This document shows positions 19,729-26,350 of a DNA stretch of 64,000 bases, piece by piece (within the stretch, counting starts at the first letter, position 1; every line of letters starts with the position of its first letter). The notes under the pieces were generated by a model. It was not told the DNA's origin and did not search any database. It was given only the letters and a program-made list of their open reading frames with translations. Position numbers and translations under genes: made by a program. Location of the stretch: the NCBI GenBank assembly GCA_963708135.1, contig OY970192.1, positions 608,001 through 672,000 on the forward strand, read 5' to 3'. Source of the stretch: an uncultured Gemmatimonadales bacterium (GTDB taxonomy: Bacteria; Gemmatimonadota; Gemmatimonadetes; Longimicrobiales; RSA9).

Positions 19729-20966
19729 GCTTCTGCCTCCCTGCGTCGCTTCGTGGCGAAGTGGAGCCCGACCGAGCCCAGCAGCGTGAGCACGCCCGCC
19801 ATCGGCCACATGAACGGATACCCCCGGTACTGCGGGAACACGTGCGCGCCGACGTCGATGGCGACGCCCACCAGCATCGGCGCGAAGATGCGCCCGAAGC
19901 TGACGCTCAGGATGTAGAGCCCGGTGTAGCGGCCGATCGCCTTGTTGCCCACTATGCCCGCGAAGAGCGGGTACGGCAATGCGACGAGCGCCGCCGCGCC
20001 CACGCCGGCGCCGAGCAGCAGCAGCACCGCCGTTCCCAGGGTCCGCATGAACACGCCCGCCAGCATGACCACGCCGAGCAGCCCCGCGCCGACCTGGAGC
20101 AGCACCGCGCGGTCGTAGCGGTCGCCCAGCCGGCCGATCACCACCGACCCGATCGCCAGCCCCACCACCAGCAGCGTCATCATGAGGGAGGCCTGCGCCA
20201 CGGTGATGCCCAGCACGACCGTGCCGAACAGGAAGAAGTAGGGCCGCACGCCATCGACGGCTCCCGTCCACAGCGCGTTCGAGACCAGGAACAGCAGCGC
20301 GGCCGGCCGCTGGCGCAGGTCCGCCCAGAGCGCCCGCAGCCCGCCCGAGATGCGTTCCTCGTGCATGGCAAGGTCGAGTCCCGCGGGCGGCGCCGCCCAG
20401 ATCGTCATCCAGGTCATCCCGAGGATCAGCAGGGCGCCCAGCAGGAACGGGAGCGGCGGCCAGATCGCGTACAGCAGCCCGCTCGCCACCAGGCCGAAGC
20501 CGAGCCCCGCCGAGTGCAGCACGCCGCGTACGCCCTGCACCCGGCCTCGCCGCTCATCCGGCACCGAGTCAACCATCAGGGCCCAGAGCGGCGTCAGATA
20601 TCCGTGCAGCGCGGCGAAGAAGATGAAAGCGACCCCGGCCAGCGGCCAGTAGCCGCGAAGGAACGGTGCCGTGGCCAGGGCGGCGGCCATCAGCGGTGCG
20701 GTGATCATGAGGAAGAAGGTGCGCCGCCCGAAGCGGCGCGTCAGTCCGGCGGGCAGATGGTCGCTGAGCGTGCCGATCCAGTACGGGACCAGCAGCGCGA
20801 AGATGCCCTCGCCGCCCACGGCGAATCCGATCAGGAACGCGGAGCGGGCGTAGCGCGCGAGCAGCACCGGCAGGACGGCGACCATGAGCGTCTGCCCGGA
20901 CGTCGAGCCCAGGGTGCCCGCCGTGATGCCGTACTCCTTCAGGATCCGTCCGCGCCGGCTCGTCAC
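19725..20966 (-). CDS. MFS transporter
   Basis: About 12 TM helices; GTLSD...FGRR and GRLGDRYDR motif-A signatures. Confidence 0.88.
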   Translation of the reverse strand: MTSRRGRILKEYGITAGTLGSTSGQTLMVAVLPVLLARYARSAFLIGFAVGGEGIFALLVPYWIGTLSDHLPAGLTRRFGRRTFFLMITAPLMAAALATAPFLRGYWPLAGVAFIFFAALHGYLTPLWALMVDSVPDERRGRVQGVRGVLHSAGLGFGLVASGLLYAIWPPLPFLLGALLILGMTWMTIWAAPPAGLDLAMHEERISGGLRALWADLRQRPAALLFLVSNALWTGAVDGVRPYFFLFGTVVLGITVAQASLMMTLLVVGLAIGSVVIGRLGDRYDRAVLLQVGAGLLGVVMLAGVFMRTLGTAVLLLLGAGVGAAALVALPYPLFAGIVGNKAIGRYTGLYILSVSFGRIFAPMLVGVAIDVGAHVFPQYRGYPFMWPMAGVLTLLGSVGLHFATKRRREAEA

Positions 20967-21132
20967 CGATTCACTCGTCCCCTCGCTCTGCCGTCCCTCG
21001 AATCCGGCGGCCGCGGCCGCGGGGCCAATCTGGCGCGCCTGCGTCGAACGTCAAGCAAGGCCGGGGCCCGCGCGCCGTCCGGATGGACGCTCGGGACCCG
21101 ACCGGCCTGGCGCTTGCACCCTCCATCGCCTC

Positions 21133-22236
21133 ATGCGCGCAGCCAGCCTCCTGCTTCCCCTGGTCCTTGCCGCCGCGCCGCTCTCGGCCCAGGCGATCCG
21201 GCTCCGCGCCTTCACGCTATCCACCGGACCCCGCCTCTCCGCCGGCACGCGCGGCACCGCCCTCTTCGCCGCCGCCGCCGACCTCTCGTTGCCCTGGCTG
21301 GGAGCCGGCCGGGCGCGGGTGGAGCTCGGCACGTCGAGCGCGCCCCTCGACCCGGAGGACGGTCCCGGGACGCGCCGGGACCGCCAGGCGACGCTCGGAT
21401 ACGCCCGCTGCCTCGGCTCCGCCGCCGCCGTCGGCCTCGGCGGCATCCGGCCGCGGGTCGGCGTCGGCATCGCCCTCCACTGGGTGCGCACCGACGCTCT
21501 CGCCCATGCCGGGGACACGACCGGGGACGGGCGCTTCGCCCGCCGGAGCTCCGCCGTGCGCCCCGCGCTCCACGCCGAGACCGGCCTCGCCCTGCCCCTC
21601 GCTCGCAACCACCGCCTCGACCTCGAGATCGCCGCGCGGGCGGCGGCCCTCCTGGGCGGCCCAGACGCGCTCGAACTCCGCTTCGGCGTGCGCTACGCGC
21701 TCGACGGCCGACCTTCCGGGTTGGTCGCCGGGGAGCCTGTGGCCGCGCCTCCGGACCCACCGGCCGACGTCGAGCCGGCCCCGGCGCCGGGTGTGGCCGC
21801 ACCCGGCGCCACCGGCGCCGCTGCGCTCCCCGCCGCCATCCGCGCCGCCTTCCGGACGGCGCTCTCCAACGCCCTCGCGGACGCCGCGGATCGGGGGCTT
21901 ATCCGGGAGGAAGGGCCCGGCTTCGCCCTCCTCGACTCCGCCTTCATCGGCGGCCGGCTGCGGCCCGAGACGGCCGCGGCGCTGCGGCGGGCCGGCGCTC
22001 GCCTGACCACGGCGGGCGCCCGGGTCTCGATCCTCGCCGACGAGGACGCGGATGCGACGGCCCGTCCGTCCACCGCCACGCTGCGGGCCGTGGCGGTGGC
22101 GCAGGCGCTCGCGGCCGGCGGGCTCGCGCGCTCCGCGATGCGCCTGGAGGTGGTGCGCCGGGCCGCCGGCGGCGACGTCGCCGTGCGGCCCCGCCGCCTC
22201 AGCGCCCGCGCTGCGCCAGCGTCACCCCGCCGATGA
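21133..22236 (+). CDS. secreted hypothetical protein, possibly a beta-barrel plus degenerate OmpA-like C-terminus
   Basis: Signal peptide (LSA-Q), beta-strand-like N-half, Pro-rich linker, RAVAVAQALAAGGL reminiscent of OmpA_C. Confidence 0.45.
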   Translation: MRAASLLLPLVLAAAPLSAQAIRLRAFTLSTGPRLSAGTRGTALFAAAADLSLPWLGAGRARVELGTSSAPLDPEDGPGTRRDRQATLGYARCLGSAAAVGLGGIRPRVGVGIALHWVRTDALAHAGDTTGDGRFARRSSAVRPALHAETGLALPLARNHRLDLEIAARAAALLGGPDALELRFGVRYALDGRPSGLVAGEPVAAPPDPPADVEPAPAPGVAAPGATGAAALPAAIRAAFRTALSNALADAADRGLIREEGPGFALLDSAFIGGRLRPETAAALRRAGARLTTAGARVSILADEDADATARPSTATLRAVAVAQALAAGGLARSAMRLEVVRRAAGGDVAVRPRRLSARAAPASPRR

Positions 22237-22494
22237 TGACCGCGGCGCCCACGAGCTGGAGCGCACGCGGAACCTCGCCGAGCCAGGCCCACGCGACGAG
22301 CAGCGCCAGCACGGGCACGAGGTTGGAGTACGTCGAGGTGCGTGTATTGCCGAGACGGCTGACGCCGCGGTACCAGAGCAGGTACGCCAGCCCGATGCTC
22401 AGCGCGCCCGAGAACGTCACGGCCGCCCATGCCTCCAGGGGCACGGCGTCGAGATCCACGCCGCGCAGCGCCGGTAGGCCCATGAGACACCCTG

Positions 22495-22500
22495 TGTCAA
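22495..22500 (-). promoter_or_regulatory. -35 box in the IS right end (junction promoter formed on circularisation)
   Basis: Perfect TTGACA 8 bp from the CT core; in the circle it sits 18 bp from CACCTT (24011-24006). Confidence 0.6.
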
Positions 22501-22511
22501 CCCCCCTGTGT

Positions 22512-23759
22512 TCAAGCAGCCGCCGCGGTGGGTTCCGCGGGGGTGAAGAAGGGGATAGCCCGTCCGTGTCGGGAGGGGTCGTAGGTGGACCGATTGTGCC
22601 AGCAGCGCCACAGCACGCGGACCCAGGCTCGGGCGAGGATTCGGATTGCGTGCGGGTGATCGCAGCCGCGGGCACGGGCGCACTTGTAGACGGCGGCGGC
22701 CCAGGGGTGGGCATGGCGGGAGTTGTCCGCCCAGGTGGTGAGGGCTTGTCGCAGGCGCTTGTTGCAGGCGAAGCGGCAGGCGACGCCGCGATGCTTGCCG
22801 GAGCTGTGCGTAACGGGGGCGACGCCGGCTTCGGCGGCGAGCTGGGCGTCGGTGGCGAAGCGGAGCCGGTCGTCGCCGAGCTCGGCGAGAATCTGGGCGG
22901 CATTGATGGTGCCGGTGCGGGGGAAGGACTTCAGGATCTCACCGTCGGGATGCTGCGCGAGGTGAGCGGCGATGAGCCCGTCGAGCTCGCGGATCTGAGC
23001 CACGAGAGGGCGGAGGACGGCGACCAGGGAACGGACGAGCTGACCTTTGGTCTCGCTCTCGAGCTCGGCGGCCTGCCCTGCGGGGGCGGAGCGGAGCCGC
23101 TCGAGGAGCTGATCGACCGGCCGGCGGCCGCAGTAGGCAGTGCGCTTGAGGAATCGTTCGAGGCGCTTGGGCCCGAGGCGGGCGGCGCTCTCCGGGGTGG
23201 GGTAGGCGTCCAGGAAATCGAGGGCGATCGGGCTATCGACATCGGCGAAAATGGCGGCAGCGCCGGCCCAGAAGCTGTCGAGCAGGCTGCGGAGCTGATT
23301 GGCGAGCTGGACGCGGGTCGCGACCAGGTCATCGCGGGTGCGAACGGCGGCGCGAAGCGCCTTGGTGCGATCGGAGGGGACCCGGAGCGGCCGGAATCGA
23401 TGCCCATCGGTACGCAGGACGTCGGCGAGGATGTAGGCATCACCGGGATCGCTCTTCCCCGGAGCCGCGGCGTAGCGGGGCCGGGTGGCCTTGAGGGCGT
23501 TCGGGTGGATCGGAACGACCGGGAAGCCGGCCTCGACCAACGTATCCACCAGAAGTCCGGACGGCCGCTCGATGGCGATGGGCAGCTGCGCCGGAGAGCT
23601 GACGCGACGCAGGCGCCGGATCAGCTCACTCAGCCCACCGGCCGTGTGAGGGATGGTGAACGCGTCAACGAGGGCGCCGCTGAGATCGAGCACACAGACG
23701 TCATGCTTGTCGCTGGCCCAGTCAATTCCGACGAGGTAGCTTGGATCCAGTCCTTCCAC
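22512..23759 (-). CDS. IS110 family transposase / bridge recombinase (DEDD RuvC-like + Tnp20 domain)
   Basis: VGIDWA, IAIE, GKSDPGDA, AGVAPVTHSSG, NKRLRQAL motifs; GGAGGTG RBS. Confidence 0.95.
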   Translation of the reverse strand: MEGLDPSYLVGIDWASDKHDVCVLDLSGALVDAFTIPHTAGGLSELIRRLRRVSSPAQLPIAIERPSGLLVDTLVEAGFPVVPIHPNALKATRPRYAAAPGKSDPGDAYILADVLRTDGHRFRPLRVPSDRTKALRAAVRTRDDLVATRVQLANQLRSLLDSFWAGAAAIFADVDSPIALDFLDAYPTPESAARLGPKRLERFLKRTAYCGRRPVDQLLERLRSAPAGQAAELESETKGQLVRSLVAVLRPLVAQIRELDGLIAAHLAQHPDGEILKSFPRTGTINAAQILAELGDDRLRFATDAQLAAEAGVAPVTHSSGKHRGVACRFACNKRLRQALTTWADNSRHAHPWAAAVYKCARARGCDHPHAIRILARAWVRVLWRCWHNRSTYDPSRHGRAIPFFTPAEPTAAAA

Positions 23760-23793
23760 GCCTCACCTCCGAGCAGAGATTCACTCCCTCGCT

Positions 23794-23999
23794 CCGGCGT
23801 TGGAAGGTCTCACCGATCGCTCACTGAAAGGCGCTCTCGGCTTCAGGTGCCGTGGCGCTACACCCTGTGGTCGGTTGGGGCCTTCCACGCCGGGCAGGGG
23901 AGCGGGTCTCATGCGGGCCGTCGAGCGGCAAGCGACGCTGGCTCTCCCTACCCGGACGCCGAAGCACTTCTCTTGAGCGGCGCGAATCTACGCCCCGCT
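23794..23999 (-). ncRNA. IS110 bridge RNA (5' hairpin, target-binding loop, donor-binding loop)
   Basis: Three stem-loops by eye; internal-loop guides CACAGGGUGU and CAGUGAG match the donor junction, and CAUGAG matches the target. Confidence 0.8.
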
Positions 24000-25011
24000 G
24001 AGGGTAAGGTGCACCAGTGAGCACGATGCCCGCCGTGCCGCACCACAGCGTCCAGGCGGTGACCGGGATCGGGCCGTAGCGCTCCACGAGGTCGCGCGCC
24101 CCGACCGTGTAGAGCGACCAGGAAGTCGATGCGCCCAGCATGATCGCCTCGCCGGCCGCCGAGGAGCCGCCCGCCTGCGCACCCGGGCCGCCCAGCACGA
24201 CGAGCGCCATCCCCGCCACCGTCGCCACCACCCCCACCCACGTGGCGGCACCCACGCGCTCGTGCCCGACGGCCGCCGAGAGCAAGGCCGTCAGGACCGG
24301 CGAACCGGCCAGCAGCAGGCTCGCGATCCCCGCCCGCGTCATTGCCAGCCCCGAGATGAACAGGATCTGGTAGAGCACGTTTCCCACCAGCCCCAGGACG
24401 AGCACCCGCGGCACGTCCGCTCGAGCCGGCAGCGGCACCGGGCCGCGTGCCCGCAAGACGGCGTAGACCACGAGCGAGGCCAGGGGGAAGCGGAGCGCGT
24501 TGAAGCCGAGCGGCGGAAGGACCGCGAGCGCATCCTTCGCGACGGAGAAGTTCACGGCCCAGATGACGACCATCACGAGCAGGCCGCGGCCCGGGTTCCA
24601 CGGCGCGGGCGCGTGGCCGGTGGTCCCTGCCGGGCCCCGCGCGGAGCCGCGCACGGCGGGGAGAGGCCTCACCGGTACGCGACCGCGGCGAGGACGTTCG
24701 CCAGCGCTGGAGGCGGGTGGGTGGACCCGTGGACGAGACAGACGAGGCTCACGAGGTCTCCGGTGCACACACGGTCGGACAGGGCCGGCGGCCACGAGGG
24801 CCGCCTGCCGGCAAGATCCGCGGCCTTGCCGGACCCCGCAAGCGCGCGCGCCGTGCCACGTGGAGCGGCGGCGAGTCTCTGCACGAAGGCACTCGGAGCT
24901 GAGCCCTGGCCGGCCAACCCGCGCCGCGGAGCACTGCTTGCGGCGCCCGCTCGCGCGGGCCAACTTCAGCCGCTGGACGGCCGTGGAGGCACGCTCGCGA
25001 AGGAGGGCGCA

Positions 25012-25287
25012 TTGGTTGCCGCAGTGGTGCTGATCCGGGTCGCGCGCGAGCACATACCGCAGGCAGCGCGCGAGGTGGCCGGGATCGAGGGGGTGTCGGA
25101 GGTCTACTCGGTCTCCGGTGACTGGGACCTCGTCGCCATCCTGCGCGTCCCGGAGTGGGAGCAGATCGCGCAGGTGGTGACGGAGCGGCTCGCGGCGATC
25201 GGCGGCATCGAGTCGACCAACACGCTCGTGGCGTTCCGGGTCTACTCGAAGCAGGACCTGGAGGGCGCGTTCGACATGTTCGAGTAG
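25012..25287 (+). CDS. Lrp/AsnC ligand-binding-domain protein
   Basis: IEGVSEVYSVSGDWDLVAI...GIESTNTLVAF; AAGGAGG RBS before TTG. Confidence 0.85.
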   Translation: MVAAVVLIRVAREHIPQAAREVAGIEGVSEVYSVSGDWDLVAILRVPEWEQIAQVVTERLAAIGGIESTNTLVAFRVYSKQDLEGAFDMFE

Positions 25288-25295
25288 GCGGGCCT

Positions 25296-26048
25296 CTACT
25301 CGCGCACTTCGTTGGGTGGGCGGGTGGCAGCCTCCGGCGCCGGCGGCTCCTCTGCGGTGGGCCGGGCAGGGGCGTGGCGCTCCGGCGCGGCGTAGCGGTG
25401 GCGCTGGTACATGTCGCGCGCGATCTCGCCGGCGATGCCCTGGGCACCAAGGCCGAAGGCGATGCCGGCGGCCAGCGCGCCGGCGCCGACCACCGCGATG
25501 AAGAAGACGAGCACGATATCCTGCGCGATGTCGAGCTGCTCCAGCGCCATGAAGGCGGCCAGCAGGATGACGGCCGCCTTCGCCGCGCGCGCCAGGGTCG
25601 GGCCGCCCGAAACCCCGCCGGCGGAGGCGAGCACGAGGTCCTTGACGAACTCGCCGAGCAGGATGCCGAGGACGAGCACTGCCACGGCGGCCATGACGTG
25701 AGGGATGTAGGCGAGCAGCTCCGCGAAGAGCGAGCTTACCGCGTCCACGCCGAGCGCGTTCGCCGCCAGCAGGATCACGAGCAGCATGAGGGTCCAGAAG
25801 ACCAGCTTGGCCAGGACCGTCGATGGGTCCAGCGAGGTGCCGGCGCGCTCCAGCGCCTCGATGACGCCGCCATCGCGCATCCAGCGATCGAAGCCAACGC
25901 GGTGCAGCGCGATGTCGGTCCCTCGCTCCACCATCTTGGCGATCGCGTAGCCCGCGAGCAGGAGCCCGAGCGCGGCGGCGAGGTGGGGCAGGAACTCGAC
26001 GATCTGGACGATTCCGTCCTGGAGTCGCTGGCTCAGGGCTTCCTGCAT
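25296..26048 (-). CDS. TM_helix-repeat (CmpX / small-conductance mechanosensitive channel-associated) membrane protein
   Basis: FLPHL / YIPHV repeats, ALEQLDIA, AFGLG motif. Confidence 0.75.
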   Translation of the reverse strand: MQEALSQRLQDGIVQIVEFLPHLAAALGLLLAGYAIAKMVERGTDIALHRVGFDRWMRDGGVIEALERAGTSLDPSTVLAKLVFWTLMLLVILLAANALGVDAVSSLFAELLAYIPHVMAAVAVLVLGILLGEFVKDLVLASAGGVSGGPTLARAAKAAVILLAAFMALEQLDIAQDIVLVFFIAVVGAGALAAGIAFGLGAQGIAGEIARDMYQRHRYAAPERHAPARPTAEEPPAPEAATRPPNEVRE

Positions 26049-26125
26049 CAGGGCGGCCTCCGTCGGGGGTCGAGCGGAACGCTGGGGCCGTGGCCTGGGA
26101 CGCGCAAGGGGCGGGAGGTTGCACG

Positions 26126-26350
26126 ATGCGCCGATTCAGCGATGCGTGGGGGAGGGAGTGGGACGTCGTGGTGGGGAGGGAGTCCTGGGGCACCCTCTAC
26201 GCCCTCTTCGTGCCCGTGGCGGGAACGGAGCCCGTGCGGCAGGTGATGCTCGACTCCGCCGGCTACGAGCAGGCGCAGCTCGAGCTCTCCGACATGGACG
26301 ACGCGGCGCTGGCGGAGCTGTTCCGCCGGACCGGTCCAAAGCAATCCTGA
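26126..26350 (+). CDS. small hypothetical protein (MRxFxDxxGRxW family)
   Basis: GGAGG RBS; protein-like composition; resembles the next ORF. Confidence 0.7.
   Translation: MRRFSDAWGREWDVVVGRESWGTLYALFVPVAGTEPVRQVMLDSAGYEQAQLELSDMDDAALAELFRRTGPKQS

Follow-up and report, generated by a model that had tools for sequence, protein, structure and literature searches.

Does the left end of the IS110-family element described here encode a bridge RNA, and do the guides of that RNA read the element's own ends and a target in host DNA? The element lies in a 64-kb stretch of DNA (64,000 nucleotides; the whole stretch analysed is called the window below). Bridge recombinases are under development as programmable tools for DNA insertion, inversion and excision. 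It is very probable that the locus is an intact IS110-group element whose left end codes for a recombinase-guiding bridge RNA about 206 nt long. This reading is carried by the anatomy of the element and by the covariation of guides with DNA across homologues. By analogy with described systems, the RNA would be transcribed with ends close to those given below, would be bound by the recombinase and would direct RNA-dependent recombination.

The element and its recombinase

On the minus strand, window positions 24019-22487 hold a 1,533-bp IS110-family element with a CT core flanking each side. The left end is 260 nt long (24019-23760) and the right end 25 nt (22511-22487). A repeat search found no terminal inverted repeats linking the two ends. 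The ends, the cores and the adjoining host DNA are as follows:

24022..24029, minus strand: GCATCGTG, the left target flank, lying in the interrupted EamA gene; only 1 of 6 positions agrees with the left target guide (LTG)
24020..24021, minus strand: left copy of the CT core, at the junction of the left target and the IS left end
24015..24019, minus strand: right donor (RD) CACTG, first bases of the IS left end; read by the right donor guide (RDG)
22512..23759, minus strand: recombinase gene, 415 aa, with a GTG start and GGAGG at 23770-23766, seven bases upstream; both Pfam domains and the NCBIfam model match
22487..22496, minus strand: left donor (LD) CACAGGGTGT, last bases of the IS right end; identical to the left donor guide (LDG)
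22485..22486, minus strand: right copy of the CT core
22480..22484, minus strand: right target flank CATGG of the window copy, where the EamA gene continues

The genome (about 5.45 Mb, one contig) contains four near-identical copies of the element, with 0, 0, 1 and 2 differences. CT is found at both ends of all four, and the flanks differ from copy to copy. The first-pass annotation had called the element intact; the near identity of the copies and the conserved catalytic residues described below agree with this. The window copy cuts an EamA transporter gene in two, and the halves score 1e-24 and 1e-16. These EamA/DMT-family halves (window 24022-24621 and 22202-22486, minus strand) are in-frame once the element and one CT are removed. 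Very long open frames also run across the IS and its flanks (19761-24020, plus strand, 1,419 aa; 23821-26193, minus strand, 790 aa); they are likely to be artefacts of high G+C content, not genes.

The recombinase has the two domains of its family, the DEDD RuvC-like domain (PF01548, 2.4e-37) and the Tnp domain (PF02371, 2e-17). It also scores 204.7 bits, over a cut-off of 140, with the NCBIfam model NF033542 ('IS110 family RNA-guided transposase'). A phmmer search of solved structures with the single recombinase sequence gives no match at E 0.001. Since no IS621 chain is found in this way, the recombinase is a distant relative of IS621. The sole structure matched in that search was SusD, at E 1.4, which was dismissed as chance. 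A profile built from 27 homologues reaches the IS621 transposase (8wt6) at 5.7e-18 and the ISCro4 transposase (9t56) at 4.3e-17. The catalytic residues of IS621 are described as D11, E60, D102, D105 and S241 (PMC11208158); the chain index of 8wt6 is the residue number of that paper plus 2. In the profile alignment to 8wt6, residues D13, E64, D104, D107 and S320 of the present recombinase align to these five, and all are invariant across the 27 homologues (alignment A2).

Fold of the left-end RNA

Homologues were collected from a scan of one genome per species, which gave 141 relatives; the best 80 of the 141 share 54-89% amino-acid identity with the recombinase. Among these best 80, the closest are from Gemmatimonadales and Longimicrobiales metagenome bins and the others are from many phyla. 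At least 270 nt of upstream DNA is present at 73 of the 80 loci, which together with the window give 67 distinct sequences of the RNA region. The dropped loci are L009, which has no upstream DNA, and L006, L008, L012, L061, L063 and L079, which have under 270 nt. Downstream DNA is too short at L041, L080 and L085. The left end could not be located in L015, L021, L055 and L076, nor the right end in L033 and L076. In L038, L039, L042, L043 and L078 the recombinase match contains an internal stop, a break of the frame or both, so that these copies have probably decayed. The elements of one Rokubacteria bin (L018/L019/L021/L077 and L022/L023) have a left end about 100 nt longer.

The bridge RNA would span about 206 nt (about 23999-23794). 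After a 5' hairpin comes the closing stem P1, inside which lie the target loop and the donor loop. Its parts, in the order of the RNA, are:

23976..23999, minus strand: 5' hairpin AGCGGGGCG-UAGAUU-CGCGCCGCU; 8 of 9 positions pair, with one G.G mismatch
23956..23962, minus strand: closing stem P1, 5' strand UCGGCGU; helices 1-2, 81-89% paired, with two-sided changes in 6 of 7 pairs
23942..23955, minus strand: target-loop outer stem, 5' strand; helices 3-5, 90-95% paired, 12 of 12 pairs compensatory
23931..23939, minus strand: LTG, A-GCGUCG-CU, in which CU reads the core
23917..23929, minus strand: target-loop inner hairpin GCCG-CUCGA-CGGC; helix 6, 99.3% paired, 3 of 4 pairs compensatory
23908..23914, minus strand: GCAUG-AG, the right target guide (RTG); its pairing partner is CT-CATGC
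23906..23907, minus strand: AC, directly 3' of the RTG, a handshake guide; it complements GT, with which the donor ends
23890..23903, minus strand: target-loop outer stem, 3' strand; consensus fold and covariation
23881..23887, minus strand: donor-loop outer stem, 5' strand UGGAAGG; helix 7, 91% paired, 6 of 7 pairs compensatory
23871..23874, minus strand: donor-loop second stem, 5' strand CCGA; helix 8, 99.3% paired, 3 of 4 pairs compensatory
23860..23869, minus strand: LDG, CACAGGGUGU, equal to the IS right end
23831..23858, minus strand: donor-loop inner stem-loop GCGC...GCGC; helix 9, 100% paired, hardly varying
23820..23826, minus strand: RDG, CAGUG-AG, which pairs with CT-CACTG
23818..23819, minus strand: handshake guide CG after the RDG; its C complements the base left of the target core
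23813..23816, minus strand: donor-loop second stem, 3' strand UCGG; covariation
23801..23807, minus strand: donor-loop outer stem, 3' strand CCUUCCA; covariation
23794..23800, minus strand: closing stem P1, 3' strand ACGCCGG, where the structured RNA ends; covariation

RNAfold folds 23999-23794 into a hairpin and two stem/internal-loop modules, with an MFE of -94.2 kcal/mol and a modest z of -1.95. RNAalifold, run on the 67 distinct homologous sequences, gives 29 pairs, 24 of them with compensatory changes. The consensus structure was then refined by hand to 38 pairs and counted on the same 67 sequences. In this structure 93.0% of cells are paired, compared with 73.4% after shuffling (none of 500 shuffles reaches the observed value) and 39-43% when the partners are slid by 1-3 columns. 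Changes on both sides are found in 32 of the 38 pairs. An Rfam 15 scan of 22300-24300, at E up to 1, finds no family.

Much of the fold drawn in the first-pass annotation survives this comparison. The hairpin is present at 23999-23976; its region aligns poorly between homologues, and the support for it comes from the single-sequence fold. The guide segments sit in internal loops in the consensus of the 67 homologues, as had been proposed. The stems stand in part. The two stem/internal-loop modules hold, but the outer part of the second stem is not conserved: the outer four pairs, GGCG/CGCC, of the GGCGUGGAAGG/CCUUCCAACGCC stem are unpaired in 42, 30, 40 and 62 of the 67 homologues. The partner of the 3' segment ACGCCGG (23800-23794) is instead UCGGCGU (23962-23956), which immediately precedes the first module; P1 therefore surrounds both loops.

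Guides and the DNA they face

Several matches between the RNA and the DNA had already been read from the window, and they are as described. The segment CACAGGGUGU at 23869-23860 is identical to the IS right end (22496-22487), CAGUGAG (23826-23820) is the reverse complement of CT plus CACTG (24021-24015), and CAUGAG (23913-23908) is complementary to CT plus CATG (22486-22481). The longest of these is rare: CACAGGGTGT occurs twice in the 64-kb window, once in the IS right end and once in the loop of the RNA, where 0.05 occurrences are expected, and none of 100 shuffles gave at least two. CTCACTG alone is not rare in the window (4 matches, 7.0 expected), so the weight of this match rests on its position in the loop and on covariation.

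Covariation between guides and DNA was the check that the first-pass annotation had put forward. Guides were taken from the alignment columns of the window's guides, the two ends were located and each guide was compared with its DNA; the pairings were shuffled 20,000 times per test. The ends of homologues were located with their own guides, which favours matches of the LDG and RDG; the shuffled pairings were scored on the same ends. The target-side tests are less touched by this bias, as the DNA on either side of an insertion is unrelated host sequence.

Covariation across the homologues is seen for each of the four guide/DNA pairs. None of the 20,000 shuffles reaches the observed score in any of the four tests, a count that overstates independence because the homologues are related to one another. 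The LTG matches the left target (LT) at 3.82 of 6 positions against a shuffled mean of 2.52 (57 distinct pairs), and the score falls to 1.1-1.8 of 6 when the register is shifted. For the RTG and the right target (RT) the figures are 5.18 of 7 and 3.79 (45 distinct pairs); the signal lies at positions +1 to +5, which match in 78-98% of pairs against 35-93% expected. The inner 8 nt of the LDG match the LD at 7.64 of 8 positions (shuffled mean 5.52; 11 distinct pairs). The RDG matches the RD at 5.17 of 6 (shuffled mean 3.68), with positions +1 to +5 matching in all 12 distinct pairs (67 rows). The left-end variants CACTG, CATTG, CATCA, CATTC, TACTG and CACTA each face a matching RDG, C or T in the DNA going with G or A in the RNA. 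The right-end variants ACAGGGTG, ACAGGAAG, ACAGGATG, ACGGGGTG, ATGGGAAG and ACAAGGGG each face an identical LDG.

The Rokubacteria bin contains two element variants, L018/L019/L021/L077 and L022/L023, which have different target guides. The LTG is CCATCGG in the one and CAGAGTG in the other, and the RTG reads CATAC and CATGC, respectively; L022 shares the flanks of L018.

The core is read by three of the four guides, the LTG (CU), the RTG (AG) and the RDG (AG), and these change with it. CT is found at both ends in 60 of the 71 homologue rows and at the sole locatable end in 5 more; in 1 further row CT is at both ends and the RTG reads CG. Where the core is AT or GT, the LTG has AU or GU, and the RTG and RDG carry the complementary letters. 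A core-reading CU after the LDG is absent from all 71 homologue rows, where AG, CG or UG stands opposite CT. In L078, L081 and L082, which are related and come from Actinomycetes bins, the left junction is AT and the right junction GT; LTG, RTG and RDG all read AT.

The bases 3' of the AG core-readers of the RTG and RDG, AC and CG, would act as handshake guides for the exchanged strands. The base that follows the core-reader of the RDG complements LTG(-1) in every one of the 71 rows, as G:C in 65 and C:G in 6 (L036, L076, L078/L081/L082 and L083). The AC that follows the RTG complements the near-invariant GT at the element end (T:A in 68 of 69, G:C in 66 of 69); these bases hardly vary. An independent repeat search found that the arm made up of RTG and handshake bases matches the right junction at 11 of 13 positions (I16). 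A further handshake contact, between LTG -2 and the base two places beyond the RDG core-reader, was considered and set aside; it is complementary in only part of the rows.

Judged on its sequence, the left-end RNA is a real bridge RNA and a further member of the known IS110 mechanism. The LTG GCGUCG-CU would read the left target and the core, and the RTG GCAUG-AG the core and the right target. The description made from the window alone, of an IS110 bridge RNA that is bispecific and built around a CT core, is thus supported by the protein domains, the published RNA layout and the covariation of the guides.

Insertion sites, expression and relation to known systems

The two target guides together predict GCGTCG-CT-CATGC as the preferred target. 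CT-CATG stands to the right of all four genomic copies, as the RTG predicts, with 5, 4, 7 and 6 of 7 matches to CATGCGG. The LTG fits the four sites poorly (1, 2, 3 and 4 of 6 matches, the window's own site having 1). The sites are unrelated and have only (C)G-CT-CATG in common. The genome contains a sole perfect 13-nt predicted target, at G000:C1:47310-47322, which is unoccupied, and 47 sites with one mismatch, compared with 41 for a reversed-pattern control. In the whole genome, no site that fits the predicted target with at most one mismatch is occupied by any of the four copies.

Read on the opposite strand, the motif CT-CATG(C) gives a gene start (ATGAG...), and the target guide may favour such starts. 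One copy (L003; G000:C1:1115280-1116821) lies in codon 2 of an opposite-strand RnfD/NqrB-family gene (L003:3043-4047, plus strand; PF03116 at 3.5e-105, profile positions 2-296). Another (L002) lies within a long open frame whose amidase domain starts at residue 178, and no family was found for the site of a third (L004). A clear gene start is thus seen at one of the four copies only; the window copy is mid-gene.

A promoter and terminator scan of the integrated element gives no sites, and none that is sigma-70-like. Two motifs would face one another once the ends are joined:

22495..22500, minus strand: TTGACA in the right end, a perfect -35 hexamer and candidate -35 box at the circle junction; of 58 homologues, 43 have TTGACA and 12 have TGGACA
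24006..24011, minus strand: CACCTT, candidate weak -10 box, 18 nt from TTGACA once the ends join; [C/T/A]ACC[T/C]T at the same spacing in most of the 58 homologues

The -10 consensus, [C/T/A]ACC[T/C]T, keeps only A at position 2 and T at position 6. IS621 is described as rebuilding its promoter on the circle junction (PMC11208160, PMC11208158), and a junction promoter made of TTGACA and CACCTT would fit this published circle model. By analogy with IS621, the element would be excised as a circle. The joined ends would place the right-end TTGACA 18 nt from the weak left-end -10 box and so drive the RNA, and a transcript start about 7 nt past CACCTT would fall at the base of the 5' hairpin. The complex of recombinase and RNA would then recombine the circle junction with a CT-centred target.

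Of the public sequencing runs, one DNA run contains 0.93 of the words looked for; it may be the source sample and so is not independent. Two RNA-library runs contain 0.04-0.05 of the words, and their contigs cover 23762-23935 and 23728-23915. These contigs differ from the window at several positions and therefore come from relatives, not from the window copy. They cannot show the start, end or strand of a transcript and were not counted as transcription evidence. A junction of right and left ends was not seen in the contigs of the public runs.

The anatomy could be read in other ways. The left-end structure might be a mere 5' UTR regulator of the recombinase gene, acting on translation or RNA stability, and the matches to the ends might reflect conserved termini. 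It does lie directly upstream of the ribosome-binding site and start codon, and the donor guides vary little (9-10 distinct sequences). However, the target guides vary widely (43 and 23 distinct sequences) and track unrelated host flanks, which a 5' UTR element would have no reason to do, and changes in the core and in the handshake bases are matched in several guides at once; such a regulator is scarcely credible as the explanation. It is also very unlikely that the element is well-formed but now silent, its RNA and recombinase no longer being made or no longer working in this host. Silence would account for the lack of a promoter-like site in the integrated state, for the unoccupied perfect target and for RNA-library contigs that belong to relatives. 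It sits badly with four copies that have 0 to 2 differences and intact ORFs, with the retention of five of five catalytic residues, and with guides that are all intact and fit the element's own ends.

A more substantial alternative accepts a genuine bridge RNA and concerns the way in which targets are chosen. Choice may depend mainly on the RTG, the core and one or two bases to its left, with the LTG playing a minor part ('half-match' insertion). The occupied sites lean this way: the right side has CATG at all four copies and the left side matches at 1 to 4 of 6, while the one perfect and 47 one-mismatch sites hold none of the copies. In the homologues, the match at LT positions -6 to -3 is no better than 46-61%, and half-match insertion by IS621 is reported in a 2026 preprint (10.64898/2026.08.31.748434). 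Against this, the covariation of LTG and LT is above the shuffles at every position and is lost on a register shift, and 5 of 6 LTG positions match in many homologues (e.g. L036, L062, L064-L067 and L075). Four sites are also a small sample, and insertions at perfect sites may be lost to selection. On balance, half-match insertion is rather unlikely. Equally tentative is a combined proposal in which a three-way fold tied by P1, an LDG that does not read the core and a choice of site made mostly by RTG and core, CT-CATG(C), hold jointly; it is doubtful that all of these apply together. If they did, the element would tend to land at the first codons of opposite-strand genes and would tolerate a poor left-target match.

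The preferred reading, an intact element with a left-end bridge RNA, places it within the IS110 group, whose features it has apart from core reading by the LDG: DEDD/Tnp domains, catalytic residues, a CT core, a left-end RNA, a short right end, covarying loops and handshake bases. It is plausible that the element is uncharacterised, as had been suggested. The labels 'programmable' and 'active' are putative, being drawn from sequence features. The family has an active literature. Bridge RNAs are reported as predicted in 85.7% of ISfinder IS110 elements (PMC11208160), so the present element is another case of a known kind, and it opens no new class of system. Its value lies elsewhere. It is a natural system from a high-GC soil bacterium, is apparently recently active, and has a recombinase very distant from that of IS621; with all guide positions readable directly from the DNA, it is a candidate orthologue for bridge-recombinase work.

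One of the closest known systems is IS621 of E. coli (Durrant et al. 2024, PMC11208160; Hiraizumi et al. 2024, PMC11208158). As described there, it has the same two domains and the same D-E-D-D and Ser residues. Its RNA, too, is encoded in the left end, ahead of the gene, and consists of a 5' hairpin followed by the target loop and then the donor loop. In both systems LTG and LDG are identical to the top strand and pair with the bottom strand, whereas RTG and RDG pair with the top. They share the CT core and the handshake bases that follow the RTG and the RDG, and the right-end -35 box of IS621 has a candidate counterpart here, TTGACA. In IS621, the bases 3' of RTG and RDG are described as pairing, once the strands have been exchanged, with the other DNA at its position 7 (PMC11208158). 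The RNA is about 206 nt long here, compared with 177 nt given for IS621. The present recombinase reaches IS621 by profile only and not by phmmer. P1 covaries here, whereas the text on IS621 describes two successive stem-loops and names no closing stem, a comparison of P1 that is one of descriptions only. The LDG here does not read the core, which IS621 is described as having in all four guides. The RDG pairs contiguously here and is described as discontiguous in IS621, and the RTG reads 5 nt beyond the core, compared with 4 in the IS621 description. Closing stem P1, an LDG without core reading and weak left-target matches are departures that could bear on specificity.

The ISCro4 transposase (PDB 9t56) is the second solved relative found by profile (E 4.3e-17) and is cited as a bridge recombinase, but the present recombinase is only distantly related to it. 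Elements of the IS1111 group, in which the RNA is called a seekRNA or right-end bridge RNA, share the recombinase family and an element-encoded guide RNA; unlike the present element, they are described as carrying the RNA in a long right end, with sub-terminal inverted repeats of 7-17 bp at the ends (PMC11208160). In the present case the RNA comes from the left end, the right end measures 25 nt, and the search of the element found no sub-terminal inverted repeats. ISPpu10 and ISPpu9 of Pseudomonas putida are likewise described as natural IS110 elements with guide-directed site choice; they use one repeated intergenic target, in contrast to the four unrelated sites found here. Set beside these systems, the present element is another well-documented case in which the published rules, namely four guides, a core and handshake bases, hold.
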